A DNA stretch of 61,668 nt, filler included, from Candidatus Omnitrophota bacterium (GTDB lineage Bacteria > Omnitrophota > Gorgyraeia > Zapsychrales > JBDRMG01): the NCBI GenBank assembly GCA_043812495.1. It is 9 parts of 9 records of this genome, joined end to end, with 100 filler letters (N's around TTAATTAATTAA, not from the genome) between each part and the next. Parts side by side here need not be neighbours in the genome. Positions count along the whole stretch, not along the records: positions 11,685 to 16,874 come from JBDRMG010000036.1; 8 more parts are not named here. One strand, 5' to 3'. Positions 11,585 through 24,568 of this stretch are shown here, one piece after another. The notes below the pieces were generated by a model. The model did not search any database, was not told the origin of the DNA, and was given only the letters and a program-made list of their open reading frames with translations. The translations under genes were made by a program, and so were the position numbers. The stretch's first letter is position 1. Every line of letters begins with the position of its first letter.

Positions 11585-11684
11585 NNNNNNNNNNNNNNNN
11601 NNNNNNNNNNNNNNNNNNNNNNNNNNNNTTAATTAATTAANNNNNNNNNNNNNNNNNNNNNNNNNNNNNNNNNNNNNNNNNNNN

Positions 11685-12047
11685 ATCGATAAGCTCCAAA
11701 TACAGAAAAAACTCGCTAAAATGAATGCTCATTCCGGCGAGTTTCTGCAAGGCAATATCCGCTTTGCCATGCAATACATCGACAAAGCCCCGCCTGAGGC
11801 TCAAAGAAGCCTTTTGCGGGCACTGATAAAAGACATCATTATTTATGAGAACAAAATAGCCATTAATATGTTTATTGACCAGCCAATTGAAGAAGTCTTG
11901 CCAAGCACAATTCCCCAAATCAACCCTAAAAATGGAAAAAGCCTTATCCCGATATCAAATCGAGATAAGGCTTCTGTCCCGAACAAAGCCGAAGGTGTGG
12001 CCAATAAGGCCAGCGTTTCGACTCCGTGTCCAGTTTGGGGTGGGTGA
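11685..12047 (+). CDS. C-terminal fragment of a probable large serine recombinase
   Basis: Open from the contig edge; coiled coil followed by QRSLLRALIKDIIIYENKIAINM; the stop lies within the tRNA-His 3' end. Confidence 0.6.
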   Translation: MDKLQIQKKLAKMNAHSGEFLQGNIRFAMQYIDKAPPEAQRSLLRALIKDIIIYENKIAINMFIDQPIEEVLPSTIPQINPKNGKSLIPISNRDKASVPNKAEGVANKASVSTPCPVWGG

Positions 12048-12114
12048 GGGGATTTGAACCCCCGACCCCAAGATCCACAATCTTGTGCTCTAACCAAGCT
12101 GAGCTACACCCACC
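12036..12114 (-). tRNA. tRNA-His (GUG)
   Basis: G-1 plus GTGGGTG/CACCCAC acceptor stem; anticodon arm CAAGA-TTGTGGA-TCTTG; T loop TTCAAAT; encoded CCA. Confidence 0.96.
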
Positions 12115-12205
12115 ATCCCGACGCTTCAACTTCGTTGAAGGTCGGGATGCTCCGACCCCCGACGTTTTCTATTTAATAAATTATTGAAGTCGGGGCGTCG
12201 GAGCA
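12114..12205. repeat. Two tandem CCCGAC/GTCGGG hairpins
   Basis: catcccgac...gtcgggatg and gctccgaccccgac...gtcggggcgtcggagc. Confidence 0.65.
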
Positions 12206-12230
12206 CCTTTAAACCTCCAACGAAGAATAT

Positions 12231-12497
12231 TTAATCTTTTCTTATCTTAATAAATCCCTCACGAATTATTGTCTCAATGTAATCTTTCCTTTTAAGCTTT
12301 TTTAAGTGTAATTCTACTTTTTGAGCAGCACTTATATTATCATATTCCTGTTTAAATGCCAGCTTTAAGGGTCGCCATCCTTTGGTTGAAATTACCTTTC
12401 CAAAATTATGTTCTTTGATCCTTTTATCAAGATTTTCCGTGCTTCCGATATAATATCTTTTGTTTTTTTCGCTTACTAATATATAAACATAAGCCAT
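12231..12497 (-). CDS. Small GIY-YIG nuclease family protein
   Basis: YVYIL...YYIGSTENLDKRIKEHN, with the conserved Glu in AQKVE. Confidence 0.92.
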   Translation of the reverse strand: MAYVYILVSEKNKRYYIGSTENLDKRIKEHNFGKVISTKGWRPLKLAFKQEYDNISAAQKVELHLKKLKRKDYIETIIREGFIKIRKD

Positions 12498-12575
12498 TTC
12501 AATTCACTTTCAACAGAAAAGCCGAAGACCCACCATAGCCAATACATTTTTCATTTTCTGCCCCTCTAAAGAAAT

Positions 12576-12830
12576 CTATTTTACCAAGTTAATAACTTCT
12601 AGAATCTCTTCTCTTTTTTCTTTGGAATAATCAAGGCCGTAAAACCTCAAAAATATTTCTTTCTTTATGTCCTGGGGTGTCGCCCACGGCTTTTGATTAA
12701 GGATAGAGCTTCGGACAATTTCCCTCGCGGCGTCAAACATCGAACATCCCATGAGCAGTCTTTCTTCCCCGCTCTTTTTCATTAGAAGCGCATGATAGCG
12801 TGAAATCATTTTCTTTGGCGTATCATTCAT
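12576..12830 (-). CDS. Small protein coupled to the nucleotidyltransferase (putative antitoxin or partner)
   Basis: 84 aa; overlaps the stop of the upstream gene; SGEERL and IFLRFYG. Confidence 0.7.
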   Translation of the reverse strand: MNDTPKKMISRYHALLMKKSGEERLLMGCSMFDAAREIVRSSILNQKPWATPQDIKKEIFLRFYGLDYSKEKREEILEVINLVK

Positions 12831-13371
12831 GGGTAGCTTTATGAAACATGTCTTTTAATTGAAGTTTATTTAACCATTCTTCAATATAGGAACGATCAAG
12901 ATTTTGTCCTGTGTTCAACAAGTTTTTTACGTCTTTTAACTGCATTTCCGACCGGCTATCCTTGGCCCAAAGCAACTTGGCTAAAATGAGATCTTCCGCT
13001 GAAATCAACCAGAGTTCGTGGCCCTGGAAAGAGGCTCTGATTTTTCTATTGAAAACGGAAGTCTGAAACGCCGATTCTTTTCGAATGATAAAATCGATCT
13101 TCACGACATATTCCTTGTGAATGAGGTTGAATATTCCTTTGTTGAAGACTTCCCGGCGAACCATTTCATCATCGACGTAAAAATCGTCCTTAAAAATAGC
13201 GATGAACGGATCGACGGCGTTTTCTTTGAGCTCAATCACGATATCGATATCCCTTGTCATACGCGGCAACGTATAATAATTGGCCGCGATCGAGCCGGAA
13301 ACCATATAAGGAATATTCGCTTTTTCCAGGCACTGCGCAACTATTTTTAGTGTTTTAAGTTCTTCGTTCAT
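12823..13371 (-). CDS. Nucleotidyltransferase (Pol-beta superfamily, DUF6036/AbiEii-like)
   Basis: YMVSGSIA, PRMTRDIDIV and EDLILAKL motifs. Confidence 0.85.
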   Translation of the reverse strand: MNEELKTLKIVAQCLEKANIPYMVSGSIAANYYTLPRMTRDIDIVIELKENAVDPFIAIFKDDFYVDDEMVRREVFNKGIFNLIHKEYVVKIDFIIRKESAFQTSVFNRKIRASFQGHELWLISAEDLILAKLLWAKDSRSEMQLKDVKNLLNTGQNLDRSYIEEWLNKLQLKDMFHKATHE

Positions 13372-13427
13372 ATTCTGCAATCGGGTCAAAAGATCATCGG
13401 CCGTGGATATGAATACCTAAGCCTTGT

Positions 13428-14477
13428 TCAATCGCCCTGCACAATCGCGCCTTGAAACGACATCTTCTCGATTTTAAAATCGTCCATCTTGGTCTTGAAA
13501 TGAAAATCGCTGGCGATTTCGGCGCCGATCGACCGCAAGCCCTGCACGATGTAATCTTCGATGGAAAAAGAGTCTTGAGCGTTCTCTTCTTTTTCCGCGG
13601 CCGGAGCGGTCTTGAGCCTCAGCTGGCCTTGCACCGTCATGTCATTGTTTTTGGAAACCAAATTCGCGGACAAATTGACCATCATACCCTTGAAACCTGA
13701 ATCATTCTCGCCACTATAATATCTTGAGAAAAGCTCGCTGTCCAAATCTTTAATGGCAACGGTTGTTTGCATGTCCTTTTTGCCGAGATTGACCCATCCG
13801 TGACTCTCAATGACCCCTTGCGTCTTTTTCTGATCGGAGCTGACAACTTTTGCGTCCACATCGAATTCCGTGACAAACGCGCGAAAAGGATAAGAAAACC
13901 GCCTGACGCGGACATTGATTTCTTTGGCCGTATAACTGAGATTTTTCTCGCCGGAACGATCGATGAAATCAACCTGCCCGTCGCGGATAATCAATTTCCG
14001 GACATAAATATTAATAGCGCTCCTGCTTTTAGACTCGCTTGTTTTGACCGGCGCAGTTTCCTTTGCCGTGGGAAGTGGCTGAACCGGGCTTTGCTGAGGT
14101 TCCGTGGTGGATCCTTCGGTTGTGGGTTCGGCCGGCGAAGATTCTTCGGTTTTTATTTGCGTCCTTTGAATTATAACCGTTGGCTCGCTCAGATACACAT
14201 AGGGAAAATACAGCTCTTTCTTAAAAAGGTATAAGGGGCCCAGGCCGATATTGGCTTCTTTGGCCTTGCCGTACCCTTCGATACTGATATCCCTGACGCG
14301 TAAATTAAACGGCAAAGAGAAACGGACATCCCCGAGGCTCACAGGCACATTGAGGGCTTTATTCAATTGATCCGTTAAGATCTCTTTTCCGTTTGCGCCG
14401 ACGTAATACGCAAGGCCGACGAAAAGACCAAACAATAGAATAAGGATTAGAGCGGCAACTCTTTTGATTCTTTTCAT
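13428..14477 (-). CDS. AsmA/DUF748-like protein
   Basis: N-terminal membrane anchor, beta-rich body and IRDGQVDFID. Confidence 0.7.
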   Translation of the reverse strand: MKRIKRVAALILILLFGLFVGLAYYVGANGKEILTDQLNKALNVPVSLGDVRFSLPFNLRVRDISIEGYGKAKEANIGLGPLYLFKKELYFPYVYLSEPTVIIQRTQIKTEESSPAEPTTEGSTTEPQQSPVQPLPTAKETAPVKTSESKSRSAINIYVRKLIIRDGQVDFIDRSGEKNLSYTAKEINVRVRRFSYPFRAFVTEFDVDAKVVSSDQKKTQGVIESHGWVNLGKKDMQTTVAIKDLDSELFSRYYSGENDSGFKGMMVNLSANLVSKNNDMTVQGQLRLKTAPAAEKEENAQDSFSIEDYIVQGLRSIGAEIASDFHFKTKMDDFKIEKMSFQGAIVQGD

Positions 14478-14517
14478 AGAAAACGTCTTTCTGTTGTATT
14501 AATTTCTGGCCTATCTT

Positions 14518-14556
14518 GCGCCCCGCCCGCCATTGATTCAGTGGCGGGCGGGGCGC
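14518..14556. repeat. REP-like hairpin, CCGCCATTGATTCAGTGGCGG family (representative copy)
   Basis: Other copies near 15050, 15203, 21799, 33226, 33582, 35295, 38504, 42167 and 53044. Confidence 0.9.
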
Positions 14557-14569
14557 CCTTGTAATTATG

Positions 14570-14914
14570 CGACCCCGGGCCGATTCTTCATGACGACGTG
14601 ATTTGTGGAGCGGAAGCGAACACAAATCACTGTCGGAATGAACCCCGCCGTCTTTTGGCGGGGAACAACAATTGCTACTCTGCTCCGTACCAAGAATTTG
14701 TAATCAAAAGCGTCCCTGGCACGATTCGAACGTGCGACCCTTTGCTTAGAAGGCAAATGCTCTATCCACCTGAGCTACAGGGACAATTCAAAGTATTTGC
14801 CAAATAACAAATTCTTGGTACGGAGTTAATTCGCCCTTATGATTTACGTTCATTCGCTTTTGCTCATTCCGTAAATCATGGGCTCATTAATCTATCCACC
14901 TGAGCTACGGGGTC
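14570..14914 (-). pseudogene. Split tRNA relic (probably Arg) interrupted by hairpin inserts
   Basis: 5' piece GACCCCGTAGCTCAGGTGGATAGA (14914-14891) and 3' piece GAATCGGCCCGGGGTCG (14586-14570) form a perfect 7-bp acceptor stem; the anticodon arm is lost. Confidence 0.7.
14711..14784 (-). tRNA. tRNA-Arg (UCU)
   Basis: GTCCCTG/CAGGGAC acceptor stem; anticodon arm TTTGC-CTTCTAA-GCAAA; T loop TTCGAAT; CCA not encoded. Confidence 0.95.
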
Positions 14915-15291
14915 AAATATCCTTAATTTTTTATCAGAGAAATTTGACCCTGCTTCGCATTCTTTAATTTCATTTCTAGAAAATGCGAAGTGGGGTCAAT
15001 ATCAAATATCTAATTAACCCGTACCAAATTTTTGTGCGGGGTTAAATCTGCCCGCCATTGATCCATTGGCGGGCTTATTTAAATGATAAGTATTTATATC
15101 AGAATTACTAATAAAAGTAAAGTTGAAGTTAAAAGGATGATGAGAAACTAATCAACCTGGTGGGCAATTAGCATAAGACAAAATGAAGGGGCAAAAAATG
15201 ATGGGTCGGCCCGTCATTGATTCAATGGCGGGCCGACCCTGATCCGTCTTCTCAAAAATTAAAGACCAATGAAGCGCGCACGCACCGCACG

Positions 15292-16452
15292 CTAAAAAGC
15301 AGGAATGAAGGACTTGATCTTCTTGATAAGCAGGCTCATGCAAAAAGGTTTGACGACATAATCGTCGGCGCCCAGAGAAAGCCCTCGCCGGACCTCATCG
15401 TCCTTGCCCTTGATCGTCACCATGATCACGGGGATTTCGCGTAGGCTCGGATCGTGCCTGATCATATCGAGCACTTCATAACCTTCAATGCCCGGCATCA
15501 CTACGTCCAAGAGGACCAAGCTGGGATTGAGTTTCCTTACCAGCTCAAGCCCTGATAGGCCGTCTTTGGCGGCAAAGACTTTGTATCCAGACGATTCGAC
15601 CTTGGATTTGATCAAACGCGTGATGCCCTCATCGTCATCAATAAGGACAACGGAGCCCAGTGAAATATACCGGCTGATTTTCTCAGTAAATAACTTTTCG
15701 TCGTAATTTCCCAGATACGCCGTCGCCCCTTTTTCCAGGCACCGTTCGGCCGAGACCATGACCTTTATGGCCTCGTCCTCTTTTTGCTTGAAGACATGGT
15801 GTTCCTTAGGCCGACTATAAATCACAATGGGTACTTTCTTGAACTGCGGCATTTGCCTGAGAATAGAAACAAGTTCGGACGAACTGAGATCATAAATCTC
15901 CGTTTCTAAAAGAATGACCTCCGGAAGAAACATCACGGCCTTGGAGATTACCTGGTTTCCTGAGGTCACAAAATCCGTATGGCAGCCTTCCTTTTTCAGA
16001 TGCTCCACGATTTTCTCTAAGCACGCGTTATGGCTGCCGGCCACGAGAACGCGCCGCGCGGTCTTTTGATGATCGCGTACGTCGGAAGGCTGGTGAACGA
16101 TCTTCTCGATGGCTTCGAGAATTTGTTCTGGCCGGAAAGGCTTGATGATAAAACAGTCCACCCCCATCATTTCAAAGTAATCGTGCAGATTCTTGCGAAC
16201 GGTAACGACGATAATACGAATTTTCTTTCCGAAATGCGTTTCCTGAATTTTTTTAATAAGCTGCGTTCCGTCCACATTAGGCATGATGATATCGGTGATG
16301 ATTATATCGGGAATAACTTCATTGGCGATACGAAAGGCCTCTTCGCCGTCTTTGGCCAGAAAAACCTGAAAACCATTTTTTTCGAGAAAATGGCCGATGG
16401 CTTCACGGCTGTCAATTTCGTCTTCAACGACTAAAATTTTCTTTTCGCTCAT
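15292..16452 (-). CDS. Protein of three tandem receiver domains
   Basis: REC1 IITDIIMP, degenerate REC2 ILLETEIY, REC3 VLLDVVMP; no output domain. Confidence 0.88.
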   Translation of the reverse strand: MSEKKILVVEDEIDSREAIGHFLEKNGFQVFLAKDGEEAFRIANEVIPDIIITDIIMPNVDGTQLIKKIQETHFGKKIRIIVVTVRKNLHDYFEMMGVDCFIIKPFRPEQILEAIEKIVHQPSDVRDHQKTARRVLVAGSHNACLEKIVEHLKKEGCHTDFVTSGNQVISKAVMFLPEVILLETEIYDLSSSELVSILRQMPQFKKVPIVIYSRPKEHHVFKQKEDEAIKVMVSAERCLEKGATAYLGNYDEKLFTEKISRYISLGSVVLIDDDEGITRLIKSKVESSGYKVFAAKDGLSGLELVRKLNPSLVLLDVVMPGIEGYEVLDMIRHDPSLREIPVIMVTIKGKDDEVRRGLSLGADDYVVKPFCMSLLIKKIKSFIPAF

Positions 16453-16975
16453 TATTCTTCTCCGTACGGCGCCCCCTTGATAATTTCCCAGCGTTTTTTA
16501 TGATTCTTTATCAGCCGAAAAAGATTTAAGGAGAAGTCGCAAAAGTCAGGTTTAAACAGCAGCGGCACTCTAAATCACTTCTTAAGGGCCTCTTCAGGAC
16601 CCTTAGTTAGAGTATAGACTACGGATGATGCCAGGACAAACAGTGTTTGCGAAAAAAGTTGGATTGAGGAAACGTTTTCCGGCGTCAGAATAGTGATATA
16701 ACCTTCTCATCCGCAGAGTGTTACAAGTTGAATAAAATCCGGCGACGAAAAAACAGAAAAATGTTACCTTTTAAAGAGGGAAGTTGTTCTTTGTTGTCTT
16801 TCTTGCTTGAGAGAAGAAGGCGCTTGTCAAGGTTTGAGTCTTCGCGGGAAATTATATGAAGGGGGGCCGATTTTNNNNNNNNNNNNNNNNNNNNNNNNNN
16901 NNNNNNNNNNNNNNNNNNTTAATTAATTAANNNNNNNNNNNNNNNNNNNNNNNNNNNNNNNNNNNNNNNNNNNNA

Positions 16976-19900
16976 GGCACACCCCAATATCAACCGGAAG
17001 AAGATGAAGAGTTGAGGAGACAAAAAAAGGAAGCCATTAAGAACGAAATCATTGCTTTCTACAGACGAACCGATTTTTCGCGAACGAAAACCTTCAACAT
17101 CACGGACTTTCTTGGCCCAAATGCTCTTGAGCGCGGTGTAGTTCTGAAATCCTTCCCTCTTCCCAATGAAAAGATATGGGGCGCATATCAGAGTATGCAG
17201 GTTGGCACAAGTTTAGCTCAAGTCCAATACCAGATTGACATGCAAAGCGCGGAAGATATCACCATGACCATCACCGGTTACAAGGAAGACGCCGAAGGCA
17301 ACGAATACGAAAACGCCCGCAGCACCTGGCAGTGGCTTAAAAAAGAAGGAAAATTCCGGTATGTCTCTGAAGCAGATCAGCTTTCTGAACTTATCCAAAA
17401 GCATGACCTTGTTGAATCCATTGCCTCGATTGAGGATCCTAACGTATTATTAAGCTATATCATGCTAAGCAGTCCGAATCTTCCCTTGGAAATAGCCCAA
17501 AGCCTTGTCACGCGTTCTTTCCGCGGCCTTCGAAGCGGCATTGAAACCCCGGATAAGCTCAAAGAGTATCATCTCTACCGGGAAACTGATCACGATATCC
17601 TCCTTTCGGATACCGTTGACCATACCGGCAACAACCTTATTGAAGTCAAAGGAAAGGTCCAGGGAGGATATTCTGCCGTCCAGGTCACGGGTGACAGGAC
17701 GCAGGTGGTCCAAACAGACAAAGACGGGAATTTCCACGCCCGCTTTATTCTCCGTCCGGCCTCTAAAACGACATTGATCTTTGTCGGCTTTGACAGCGAG
17801 AAGCACACCCGCACAAGGCCGAAAGAATTAACCATTCATCAGACAAGCCCGGCCCAGGACACCGAAGACATGTTTCTGGCCCTGCTAACCGCCAAAAAAG
17901 ACGTCCGCGAAAGAATCCAGCAGAAACCCGAACAACTCCGTTATATGGTCAGAAAGATCGAGCGAAGCGTCCTGAAATACTTCACGGAAGATGAAGCCAT
18001 TGGCTTTGCCCACTTACAAAAAAGAATCCAATCAGCGCCCGATGAACTTATCAAAGGTATCTATGAATCTATTGATGGAAAATTCAAACGCGTAGCCGAG
18101 TTGACCATCCCCGGTTTTCGCTCAACAGAGCGTCAGTTCTTCTTCCAGAAATACGCTCATGACTGGATGCGGCAAAAGAAAAAAGATTCCCAATGCCCGG
18201 GTGTCATTCTCGCTTTAGAGCAGGGCTTGGGCAAGACCCTGATATTACTGTCGTTTTCACGCGGGAATGAAGATGGTGCTATGATCATTGCCCCCAATGC
18301 GGTCGTGAGTATATGGGGTGAGCAGGAAGGCAAATTCTTTGAGGATAATCTGCTTGCCATTATCCGCGGAACTTCTTTGGAAAAGACACAGGCCATTGAA
18401 GCCGCTGGAAATGATCCCAAGGTTGCGAATCTCGAATTCCTGAGAAACACTTCGCATAATCGTTTTGTTGCGATGAACGTTAATGATGGACAAGACGTCA
18501 TCATTGACGAAAGCCAGTTTATCGGCCGCACAGGCACCCTGCAGACGCAAGGCGCCCACAGGCTCAGAGGCGCCTTTACAGTTCTCTCCAGCGCCACGCC
18601 TTATGCCAGGCCTGAACAGATGCGCGCTGTCTTTGATTTTCTCATTAAAGTCAAAGGAATGCTCAAAAGCAGGGCCGCTTTTGAGAGAGCCTTTGATAAA
18701 GCAGACCCTGAGGCCCTGCGAATGCTTCATTTTCTCTTTGATGAGTATGTTCTCAGGATAAAAAAAGACGATGTCTTTCGTCTGCAGGAAGATCCTCAAT
18801 CTCTTCAGCGAAACCGTCTGCCCAATAAGCACTATGTGGATTCGCAAGAACTAGGAGAGTTCACTCTTACGGAAAGCCAGTGTCATTCCATTGTGCAGAT
18901 GTTTGTTTTTTGGGATGAATGGAGAGAAAAACACCTGTCAACAGGAAGAAGGACACGTGATGATGAACTCCTTCAAAGGGGACGCGGAGGAGACTCCTTC
19001 TCTAAAAAGCACTCCTTAAGGCAAGCCATGAACAGTCCTGGCTATACCGGCGGAGCTGAGGAATCACCCAAACACGCGGCCATGGACAAAATCATCGAAA
19101 AAGAAGTCAAAGGCAATAAGGCCAAGGTCATTATCTTCACCCAGTACATGCAGCAGGTCAGAGACTATTACGAGCGCTACAAACAACAGGGCTTGGGTGT
19201 CCTGACATTATATAGTGAGACCGCTTTAACCGAAGGCCTTCATGTCAAAAGAGGATATCTGACGGATCATGAAGGCCATATCCGATACTTCCGAATGAAA
19301 AGCAAAAATGAATACGCCATAGGAAAAGACGGTCGGCCCGTGGAAGTCAAAGGTAAAGAGAAGGGGTCTCCCATCACTCCTTTGGACTATAACCGCCTTG
19401 CCTCCCAGAATGACCCGACAATAAATATCGTCATCACCACCTATGAAACAGGCGCTTTTGGCCTGACCCTCACCGCAAGAGACGTGGCTGTCTTTGATGA
19501 CCTGGCCAGAGACTATTCCCAGCAATACCAGGCTGAGGAACGCATCAACCGCATTGATAATGACAGGCTTAAATTCGCAAACAGATATTACTTCCTCAGG
19601 GCGAAATATCCAGAATCCTTCCTTGAGCAAACAAAGAGATTCTCTGTCATTGTTCATAAACGCTCGGGTCATAGAGAGATTATTCCCACCGAAAGCATTA
19701 CACAACAGCAGCGCCGGAATAAAGATCTTGAAATCCGGTCTTTATATCGCTACTACCTTGCTCAAGGAACCTACGATGAAGTGCATGGAAAGAATCTTAG
19801 AGCGCAAGAAGCCGCATTTAATATCATGATGGAAGGCTTTTCGGATGCGGAAGACACGCGACTTTTTGGCGGGCAAAGAGAGAAAGAGGCCATGCCGTTC

Positions 19901-22201: not shown

Positions 22202-24394
22202 TCAACTTCTTTCCTTCAGCAGTGCCTTGAGGGCCTTTAGATTGAGAAAATACGGTATGATATTGGAGTAGGCGTCACTCCAGGGTCTTTGCAATCCATG
22301 TTGTTCCACCGAAACAGTATTCCACTGATATTTGGACAAAAGTTTTTCGTAGGTATCCTTGTCCCACGTCAAGGCGACCCAATCCGAATTATACCGTTTG
22401 CTGATGTAATCATTGTCTTGCTTAAAAGCCATGTAAGCGTCGGTACTCGATGCTGTCATCATAAAAGCAAGGGGAAGATTCATATAGCGATTAGTAAGAT
22501 GAAGAATAACAATTCCGTCTTTTGTCAAATGGCGCTGATAAATCTTTATGGCTTCTACCGTCAGCAAATGAACAGGCACGGAATCTCCGCTAAAGGCATC
22601 CACGACTAGAATCTGATAATTTTGCGGATCCATTTTCTCTAAAGACAACCTCGCATCGCCGACGATGAATTTCTTCTCGCCTTGGGATATATCCAAATAC
22701 GTAAAATATTCTTGGGCGATCGAAACAATATCGGGATCCAATTCGAAAAGATCAACCTGCTGCCCTTTCTTGAGATACGTGGCGAGCGCCCCTGTTCCCA
22801 GACCGATCATCCCGACGCGCCGGATATTCGACTCATGAATCAGCCATTCGGCAACCGGTGATTTCGGGTTGTAATACGTGAGCGGAACATAGCTGATTTT
22901 CGGGTCAATAAACTGAGCCCCATGAACAGTATTTCCGTTTGTCAAAAGGCGGACACCATGCTCCTCAAAAACCCTCTTGATGCCGTAATAATTGCGCCGA
23001 CTAAAAACATACTTTGACTTAAACCACAAAGGCTCGATGGTCTGAAGCAAAATCGTGCTGGCTAATAATCCGACGACAAGGGCCAGTCTATCTTTTCTTA
23101 TAAGAAAAATAAAGAATCCTGCGCAGAACGCCCATCCCAAAAGTCCTGCCTGCCCGAATTGTTCGGAAAATTTCGGTCCGAAATATAAAGCCGCAATAAA
23201 TCCGACGACGCTCAAAAGATTCATCCAAGAAAATGATATCTTGGGACTCTCGAGCAGCCAAGCCAGGCAGACAAAGAACAAGGCAAGAAAATATTCCAAA
23301 TGGGACGAAGATATCAGCGGAGCAATCCACGTAGCGATCAGCCCGCCGCAAAATCCACCCAGAGAAACGACAAAATAATAAAATGTTAATTGTCGCGCAT
23401 CCGGCCGCAGGGCATAGAGCCGGCTCTGACAAAATAGGCAAATGATCAACAACAGAAATAGCAAAACTATCAGACTAACCAGCATGGGTATGACTTCCCT
23501 GGCCATCGCGAAATAAAACAGGATGCTAAAGGCTATCACGGCAAACATGGCGCGGTTAATCCATCGGGGACACCAGGGATTCTTTTTGAAATTCAAAACA
23601 TAGGACAGTAGATAAATCACCAAAGGAATCATCCAGAATAAAGGCACAGGCGCGATTTCTTCGGTTACCAAATTGGTCACAGACAGAAACATCATGACCC
23701 CTGCAACGCCATAGAAAAACCATATCCAGACTTTGGTTGTTGTCCATACTAGGCCCCCCAATAGGGCCTTCTCCCTTGTTTGTTGTTGCACCCAGACAAA
23801 TTTCAGACACAACAGATAGAGGAGAACAACAAAACAATAACCCGCGCGCCAAATATGCTGCTGAACATTCAAATCGAAAACCATCTCAAAGATAAAAGGA
23901 TAGCTGACTAAGGCCAGAAAGGATCCGAAATTTGAAACAGAAAACAGCACATAAGGATTGTTTCTTTCACTGAGAGTGGATTGTGAGATCCAGGACTGGC
24001 AGATGATGCTCATCGTTGAGAGAACAAAGAAAACCGGACCGATGGAGAGCGCAAGCCGCCAAAAGACTTCGATGACCATCGGCCATTCGAGCGATGCATA
24101 TTTCAAGGCCAACGCTTTTCCGGGAAAAAATAGCGCGGGGAGAATCAAAAGCAATAAATGAAATTTACGATAGCGCGCAATCCCCAGCCATTGGATGACA
24201 TAATGCGCATACATGTATCCCAAGAGAAGTGCCGCCTGAAAAAAAACAATGCATGCGCCCCAGACCATGAAGCTTCCGCCAAAATTCGGCAATAATATTT
24301 TCCCGATGATAAACTCTATCTGGAACAAAAGAAAGGCGGAGAGAAAGACGAGGAAACGGATGATCCAAATACTATTCAATGAAATTCCTTTCAA
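22202..24394 (-). CDS. Fused membrane domain / spermidine-synthase-like methyltransferase
   Basis: Multi-TM N terminus (SAFLLFQIE, VWGACIVFFQ); C-terminal IGLGTG, FELDP, VDAFSGDSVPVHLLT. Confidence 0.9.
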   Translation of the reverse strand: MKGISLNSIWIIRFLVFLSAFLLFQIEFIIGKILLPNFGGSFMVWGACIVFFQAALLLGYMYAHYVIQWLGIARYRKFHLLLLILPALFFPGKALALKYASLEWPMVIEVFWRLALSIGPVFFVLSTMSIICQSWISQSTLSERNNPYVLFSVSNFGSFLALVSYPFIFEMVFDLNVQQHIWRAGYCFVVLLYLLCLKFVWVQQQTREKALLGGLVWTTTKVWIWFFYGVAGVMMFLSVTNLVTEEIAPVPLFWMIPLVIYLLSYVLNFKKNPWCPRWINRAMFAVIAFSILFYFAMAREVIPMLVSLIVLLFLLLIICLFCQSRLYALRPDARQLTFYYFVVSLGGFCGGLIATWIAPLISSSHLEYFLALFFVCLAWLLESPKISFSWMNLLSVVGFIAALYFGPKFSEQFGQAGLLGWAFCAGFFIFLIRKDRLALVVGLLASTILLQTIEPLWFKSKYVFSRRNYYGIKRVFEEHGVRLLTNGNTVHGAQFIDPKISYVPLTYYNPKSPVAEWLIHESNIRRVGMIGLGTGALATYLKKGQQVDLFELDPDIVSIAQEYFTYLDISQGEKKFIVGDARLSLEKMDPQNYQILVVDAFSGDSVPVHLLTVEAIKIYQRHLTKDGIVILHLTNRYMNLPLAFMMTASSTDAYMAFKQDNDYISKRYNSDWVALTWDKDTYEKLLSKYQWNTVSVEQHGLQRPWSDAYSNIIPYFLNLKALKALLKERS

Positions 24395-24417
24395 TAAGAT
24401 CTGCGCTTAGGGAATTA

Positions 24418-24520
24418 TTGACTTTCTCTTTATTAAAGGAACGGTGGAAGTCAATATTAGGTCTTCTTTCTCGTATAGAGAGAATATTATTGACTGTTCC
24501 ATTAATAAGGAAAAGACCAA
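24418..24520 (+). mobile_element. 103-bp MITE, copy 1, TA target duplication
   Basis: TA at 24416-17 and 24521-22; imperfect terminal inverted repeats; identical to the reverse complement of 32767-32869. Confidence 0.88.
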
Positions 24521-24568
24521 TAAGAAAATTAAATAATAATATTCTCTTTATTTGCTCAAAGACAATTC

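Follow-up and report, generated by a model that had tools for sequence, protein, structure and literature searches.

A tRNA-Arg(UCU) gene nested in the relic of an apparent older allele in an Omnitrophota genome, and its candidate link with hairpin-ended GIY-YIG mini-elements

tRNA genes are usually seen as landing pads that are stable and inherited vertically. Insertions leave partial tRNA copies next to an intact gene, one copy being found at the far end of an element of 9-23 kb (van der Gulik et al. 2023, PMC9897764). In tRNA-dependent lysogeny it is a complete phage that integrates, equipped with a tyrosine integrase and with an attP core of ~10 bp (Guerrero-Bustamante and Hatfull 2024, PMC10865867). 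SegB of phage T4 is a free-standing GIY-YIG homing endonuclease which cuts tRNA genes at a T-loop motif and spreads with neighbouring tRNA genes by repair (PMC2330249). Small single-domain GIY-YIG genes of the Ssn type are flanked by hairpin repeats that also occur as many gene-less copies; their authors compare the unit NTS-ssnA-NTS to an insertion sequence, its mobility being hypothesised only (Chenal et al. 2025, PMC11893778). REP/BIME repeats, associated with RAYT, are many-copy, lineage-specific and mostly extragenic hairpin repeats arranged in composite units (Di Nocera et al. 2013, PMC3733652).

The locus considered here belongs to a Candidatus Omnitrophota genome (G000; assembly GCA_043812495.1), lies on a contig of 5190 nt (C36) and is read on the minus strand. 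Positions refer to the window, which is the whole stretch of 61,668 nt that was analysed, a chain of contigs. An intact tRNA gene was found nested inside the relic of another one, at the places given by an earlier note on this DNA (Table 1). The outer acceptor strands, GACCCCG and CGGGGTC, pair over 7/7 positions and differ from those of the inner gene (GTCCCTG/CAGGGAC), as do the T-stem 3' strands (outer CGGCC vs inner CGTGC). The inner tRNA-Arg(UCU) reached 67.6 bits with Rfam and was also called by ARAGORN. The perfect 19-bp inverted repeat around it, the GA hairpin on the 5' side and the two downstream hairpins were all recovered; the placement of the latter in the T loop was backed by the relics of Arg(CCU), G443 and G018. 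The outer copy lacked not only the anticodon arm, as already reported, but also the T-stem 5' strand and the variable loop. A match to its 3' heptamer was encountered in 1.8% of random 400-nt windows, and in 0 of 200,000 when the T-loop context was included. Folding of the nested region gave z = -8.8; the cloverleaf was not the minimum in folding programs, even for the isolated tRNA.

Table 1. Features of the nested tRNA-Arg(UCU) locus (window positions)
Feature	Position	Strand	Remarks
Outer (apparently older) tRNA-Arg(UCU), 5' piece	14891-14914	-	acceptor strand, D-stem 5' strand, D loop, first 2 bases of D-stem 3' strand; 92% to inner gene
GA-hairpin head (TTA-ATGAG...CGAATT-AA)	14826-14890; hairpin 14887-14828	-	genome repeat, at least 93 copies; leave-contig-out profile 42.5 bits, E 1.7e-13
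19-bp inverted repeat, left arm	14807-14825	-	arm family also around GIY-YIG genes; 16-mer type common to G008
22-nt leader within stem	14785-14806	-	promoter-like sites not above chance
Intact tRNA-Arg(UCU)	14711-14784	-	sole gene with this anticodon found in G000; CCA not encoded
19-bp inverted repeat, right arm	14683-14701	-	perfect match to left arm
Spacer	14667-14682	-	site expected for D-stem end, anticodon arm, variable loop, T-stem 5' strand
GTTC, likely outer T loop 5' half	14663-14666	-	from sequence; same insertion point in Arg(CCU) relic of G000, in G443 and in G018
Small GC hairpin	14643-14663	+	second hairpin of second composite repeat
Hairpin head, ATGAC...GGAAT subfamily	14587-14642	+	9 genome copies vs 0 in five shuffles
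Outer tRNA, 3' piece	14570-14586	-	T-loop 3' half, T-stem 3' strand, acceptor 3' strand, discriminator
DUF748 gene	13428-14477	-	marks synteny on the downstream side of tRNA-Arg(UCU) within the order; lies outside the element

A search of positions 11650-17000 with Rfam returned only two tRNAs above the gathering score and no intron family; as the anticodon arm and the T-stem 5' strand are missing as well, the outer copy was rejected as a tRNA spliced from a group I or II intron. The 304-nt insert contains no gene, neither a nuclease gene nor a clear remnant of one was seen at the locus, and no internal promoter site in the stem rose above chance. Palindromes from other repeat families are also present on either side of the locus (14518-14556, 14944-14999, 15019-15082 and 15203-15239), and a short hairpin at 15019-15038 belongs to the same arm family as the 19-bp arms.

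The right border was less clear than the left one. The outer gene had been said to resume as GCA at 14683-14681, a claim that was not confirmed: the repeat arm ends with this G, and the fit of the bases after it to the middle of tRNA-Arg(UCU), like their fit to a repeat tail, was reached by ~19% of random stretches. Neither candidate identity of 14682-14664, tRNA middle or usual repeat tail, fitted better than random, so that the right border of the 207-nt D-stem insert described previously is tentative. No clean insertion point with a target duplication was visible at the locus, where at most GA is repeated at both junctions.

Read support, proposed earlier as a check for misassembly, was obtained for one side. 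A contig of the public run X3 (depth 2) covers 14767-14997 without any difference, spanning the left junction; the right-hand junctions were bridged by none of the 32 pieces listed (of 74). An assembly artefact, in which strain reads with different tRNA alleles were joined, would be in keeping with these unbridged right-hand junctions and with a short contig in a fragmented, repeat-rich assembly. We give it hardly any credence, the left junction being identical in another run, the same layout being present in other genomes and at other loci (see below), and the outer pieces not being copies of the inner gene.

Two acceptor pairs and one T-stem pair distinguish the outer from the inner copy. 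The outer-end pattern had four intact matches in 401 genomes of the phylum, all of them Arg(UCU), and in 25 of 29 loci from relatives in the order, tRNA-Arg(UCU) and the DUF748 gene lay at most 1.5 kb apart. Since the outer ends match only Arg(UCU) and synteny is conserved, the outer copy is, judging from sequence, the older Arg(UCU) allele at its usual site and the inner gene its apparent replacement. The earlier note had suggested looking for another missing Arg isoacceptor; all five Arg anticodons were present in G000, and a lost sixth isoacceptor was rejected as the origin of the relic. The inner gene is identical to one in family f9. AGA accounted for ~19% of Arg codons in a rough count over long open frames of G000, and its reading requires the UCU anticodon by wobble rules. 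Alleles of this tRNA may turn over readily, identical stems being displayed by 23% of 95 within-genus pairs (a count for Arg(UCU) only, without a control tRNA).

Nesting was not confined to this gene. A strict test, which demanded paired outer ends, was passed by six of the 40 tRNA loci of G000 (41 ARAGORN calls made with no intron search, minus one doubtful Leu call), four of them with a different acceptor stem. Controls gave 0/40 with strands swapped, 32/8000 (0.4%) with random flanks and 41/1478 for cross-locus pairs. The Val(GAC) locus displayed three layers, the Asp and Arg(UCG) loci held a GIY-YIG gene inside the relic, and differences between outer and inner alleles recurred at Phe, Val and Cys.

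Additional tRNA debris was observed in the same genome. Hairpin-riddled 5' and 3' relics, with T stems unlike those of the intact genes, occur at Arg(CCU) (C1:11760-12265, L181) and Arg(ACG) (C51:390-820), and four of the five Arg loci (UCU, UCG, CCU, ACG) have a layered look. A tRNA-Asn gene at G000:C51:8274-8867 contains a 518-nt anticodon insert; a GIY-YIG gene and a second copy of the tRNA 5' end come before it. The start of another contig (G000:C66:1-172) consists of two exact tandem 85-nt units, each beginning with a tRNA-Arg(CCG) 5' end.

The 16-mer type of the stem arms was found in G000 in these two arms only. In G008, a member of another family, it likewise occurs only as two perfect 19-bp arms, which surround the orthologous tRNA-Arg(UCU); there, a later 5' relic and a GA hairpin lie inside the arms. 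None of 400 genomes of the class (a sample to which G008 does not belong) displayed the 16-mer around a tRNA, and one of the 400 has it away from any tRNA. A GTDB-wide scan with a stricter pattern, the arm together with a tRNA-Arg 5' end, gave 62 loci, mostly in other phyla; one phylum-level match (L040) was rejected as an arm-wrapped tRNA, the match being the end of a neighbouring tRNA-Leu gene. Enclosing inverted repeats with a score of at least 14 were present at five of 97 loci scored vs none in direct orientation, and two of the five look like unrelated palindromes.

The orthologous locus was surveyed in 101 genomes, 99 of which had the intact gene; the nearest relative, G001, belongs to another genus. 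Among these 99 genomes of the order, six displayed a 5' relic (control 0) and 21 a 3' relic only (control 8). Full paired nesting was found in two, and with a different allele in G000 alone. The second case, G443, has the whole layout, broken within the anticodon stem and accompanied by a short duplication of AGC; the arms are of the CACCAA type and the outer ends pair imperfectly (one mismatch, one wobble). In G059, a 5' relic, a GIY-YIG gene and an intact, different allele follow one another, and in G455 a GIY-YIG gene lies upstream of tRNA-Arg(UCU). Downstream copies that are nearly complete and contain a single hairpin insert were found in G425 and G455; a stepwise or a tandem history would fit them. 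The comparison with relatives, put forward earlier as a means of telling nesting from a simple tandem array, yielded the full layout in one genome and copies compatible with a tandem history in others. Apart from these, the anticodon of tRNA-Arg(UCU) in G029 is interrupted by a 205-nt insert ending in G (L019:1068-1349), which resembled a group I intron by eye and had no Rfam intron match at E 0.01.

Some of these relatives bear on a stepwise origin, in which separate events left the 5' and 3' relics, through half-gene replacement or through tandem duplication and hairpin-driven decay, and the stem formed around the survivor without any cassette having moved. One-sided relics were indeed commoner than two-sided ones, near-complete tandem copies with a hairpin insert exist in G425, G455 and G410, and the outer ends of G443 are slightly mismatched. 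Such a history would nevertheless have to account for two outer ends that come from one allele, three compensatory pairs away from the inner gene, a situation repeated at Phe, Val and Cys; it also faces a perfect stem that encloses the whole inner gene and whose arm type is common to G008, around the same tRNA. We regard it as unlikely, though the strongest of the alternatives. If it were true, the locus would still represent an unusual, if less surprising, case of tRNA gene turnover.

The hairpins at the locus were each assigned to a repeat family. At least 93 GA-hairpin heads were counted in G000 by pattern and 165 with a profile built without contig C36, compared with none in the reversed genome. 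Nine of the 93 lay within 600 nt of a tRNA or tmRNA gene (~2.7% expected). The earlier generalisation that hairpin elements attack structured RNA genes holds insofar as tRNA copies are repeatedly interrupted; these nine heads indicate a bias and not a rule. In most cases another hairpin comes after the GA head, and its loop varies from 3 to 285 nt (convincing cases among the 66 listed), and one case with an 801-nt loop is probably due to chance. The junction type that joins head to arm occurred in 23 copies in G000 and in one of 150 other genomes of the order. Because the junction is thus nearly private to G000 and the stem is common to another family, a joint arrival of the GA hairpin and of the stem around the tRNA is, on comparison of sequences, not required.

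Positions 14587-14663, on the plus strand, correspond to another composite, whose subfamily numbers nine copies vs none in five shuffled genomes. Its head (14587-14642) was assigned by a count combining pattern and folding, having escaped the ATGAG-subfamily profile. In G000, a head of this kind also borders the T loop of the Arg(CCU) relic, and GTTC is followed by double hairpins in the G443 and G018 relics. Positions 14890-14587 could also be a single double-headed cassette, an arrangement displayed by 12 of 67 composites; the head at the Arg(CCU) T loop makes this less likely.

Other properties of the GA repeats were recorded. Outward-facing ribosome-binding-like sites with a gene start accompany 20 of the 93 heads (1.3% at random), and the composite repeat tail looks TATAAT-like on the outward strand (by eye); the repeat is often found in 5' leaders and may affect expression. 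One composite (G000:C16:131860-132002, minus strand) has a 78-nt loop and lies behind a promoter-like sequence and a TAGCTCA motif; it is possibly the relic of a small RNA or tRNA gene.

The abundance of these composites raises the question of local capture, i.e. of a repeat of the genome itself (GA head plus variable hairpin) that took a tRNA into its loop and was moved by a transposase of the Y1/RAYT type. The 23 copies of the head-plus-arm junction, the widely varying loops and seven Y1 (HUH) transposase matches in G000 are compatible with it. Of the seven Y1 genes, however, none is bracketed by repeats and one has a single head within 300 nt, whereas a GIY-YIG gene on contig C5 is bracketed on both sides; the different allele and the arm type common to G008 would also be left unexplained. 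Local capture appears improbable to us, more so than the stepwise history.

This bracketed element (G000:C5:24167-24653, L179) consists of a GA head, an arm, an 84-aa GIY-YIG gene at 24312-24563, another arm and an inverted GA head, and is placed between two housekeeping-like genes. Its arms are of the CACCAA type and belong to the same wider family as the 19-bp stem, and a decayed homologue with the same ends was found in G001 (L226). We consider it a candidate autonomous partner. The closest solved relatives of C5-type proteins are UPF0213 proteins, matches to NCBIfam being weak and below the cut-off. Homologous loci were examined in 30 of 62 matches: ten displayed enclosing inverted repeats without a tRNA and 14 lay within 600 nt of a tRNA. 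Several of their arms read, by eye, like the second hairpins of gene-less repeats of G000. GIY-YIG matches were found within 600 nt of a tRNA or tmRNA in 11 of 16 cases in G000 (2.7% at random), and the corresponding figure for small GIY-YIG genes in five relatives was 15 of 27 (from 33 matches, after leaving out three long frames and three without a locus).

The simplest reading of these sequences would be that the repeats are empty GIY-YIG mini-elements and that, here, a tRNA fills the slot. A tRNA carried as cargo in the loop of a hairpin element, as suggested earlier, is a fair description, because the loops of the arm family vary from 3 nt to a GIY-YIG gene and arms of the same type hold the orthologous tRNA in G008; the cargo is nonetheless the same isoacceptor as the gene it interrupts, and would be a replacement and not a passenger.

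The same contig contains another GIY-YIG gene (88 aa, 12231-12497, minus strand) beside tRNA-His, which is preceded by long hairpins (window 12036-12497); a 7-nt match to the tRNA-His 5' end lies upstream of the gene. A pair of nucleotidyltransferase-like genes is located further upstream of tRNA-His (12576-13389), and a 108-aa frame without a Pfam or NCBIfam match directly behind it, at the contig end (11721-12047, plus strand). The latter recalls, as we presume, the C-terminus of a large serine recombinase, and the region 11721-12047 is possibly the end of an island.

A large integrase-driven element, such as a prophage or island, could in principle also have been deleted down to its tRNA after tRNA-dependent integration, which follows the same logic of breaking a gene and supplying a tRNA with matching isotype (PMC10865867). 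Against this stand the lack of an integrase on C36 (the two PF00589 matches are on C16 and C18), the at least six loci of G000 with the same tiny hairpin-ended layout, and the GIY-YIG genes found at this very site in relatives. We judge such a remnant very improbable, less credible than local capture and only slightly more so than an assembly artefact.

The account preferred here, which we hold to be probable, is that a gene-less mobile cassette of 143 bases carrying a tRNA broke the resident gene and took over its site and function; its movement would have been driven by a nuclease. The arm-tRNA-arm unit would derive, as a non-autonomous form, from a GIY-YIG mini-element with hairpin ends, the tRNA having taken the place of the nuclease gene. 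Following a cut by a putative GIY-YIG nuclease acting in trans, it would have entered between the D arm and the T arm of the resident gene, and repair by recombination would have been aided by the likeness of the two tRNA copies. Since the gene is single-copy and AGA is common, only inserts that bring the cognate tRNA would be expected to survive. The dead ends may later have gathered hairpin repeats (the GA head on the left, the composite in the T loop) and the middle may have been lost. Transcription of the working tRNA would presumably start at the old upstream promoter, and ordinary tRNA processing, an established pathway, would release it from the loop of the stem.

An essential single-copy tRNA gene thus appears to have been swapped in place for another allele on a gene-less cassette. 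More tentatively, and with less conviction than for the locus itself, we propose a class of bacterial mini-transposons in which the space between two hairpin arms can be occupied by a tiny GIY-YIG nuclease gene or, instead, by an entire tRNA gene; the tRNA form would home into a gene of the same isoacceptor, kill and replace it, and essential tRNA genes could in this way have been swapped between lineages repeatedly without an integrase. The link through the arm family points to candidates for both enzyme and substrate, and to a possible role for UPF0213-like proteins. If true, it would offer a route for horizontal exchange of tRNA alleles and account for the tRNA debris in such genomes, and a very small tool for site-directed insertion might follow.

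No description of nested tRNA cassettes was found in the literature searched, which comprised main texts, mostly of papers accessible without subscription. In common with tRNA-dependent lysogeny, the host tRNA gene was disrupted and not rebuilt at the junction, and the outer ends match only Arg(UCU), which is also the identity of the inner gene (PMC10865867). As compared with that system, the locus differs by the lack of integrase or prophage genes, its size (143-304 nt), its hairpin ends, the many tRNA loci concerned and the tie to GIY-YIG genes (PMC10865867); the core repeated at the junctions amounts to at most GA here and to AGC in G443.

Integrating elements leave one partial copy at their far end (PMC9897764), whereas here both ends of one older allele are found at most 130 nt on each side of the intact gene. 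The GA repeats resemble REP/BIME in being many-copy extragenic palindromes; they differ in that no GIY-YIG link or tRNA-gene cargo was found in the accessible description of the latter, and in that the Y1 genes of G000 are unbracketed (PMC3733652).

Ssn-like organisation, a GIY-YIG gene flanked by hairpin repeats, is displayed by the C5 element and not by the tRNA-Arg(UCU) locus (PMC11893778). The SRM motif was absent from 14501-15300 and occurred seven times in G000 compared with seven, three and four times in shuffles; its absence at the locus sets the latter apart from Ssn, as does the accessible text of the Ssn paper, which makes no mention of "tRNA" (PMC11893778). SegB offers a likeness in its free-standing GIY-YIG genes near tRNAs, as in 11 of 16 cases in G000 and 15 of 27 in relatives, though at this particular locus only in G059 and G455 (PMC2330249). 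It acts, however, between phage genomes and converts a region, no nested tRNA or hairpin-ended cassette being described in the accessible part of that source (PMC2330249). What this locus adds is a link from the stem around the tRNA to the termini of GIY-YIG mini-elements, and the arrangement is a variant of a known strategy, which is to break a tRNA gene and bring a spare.
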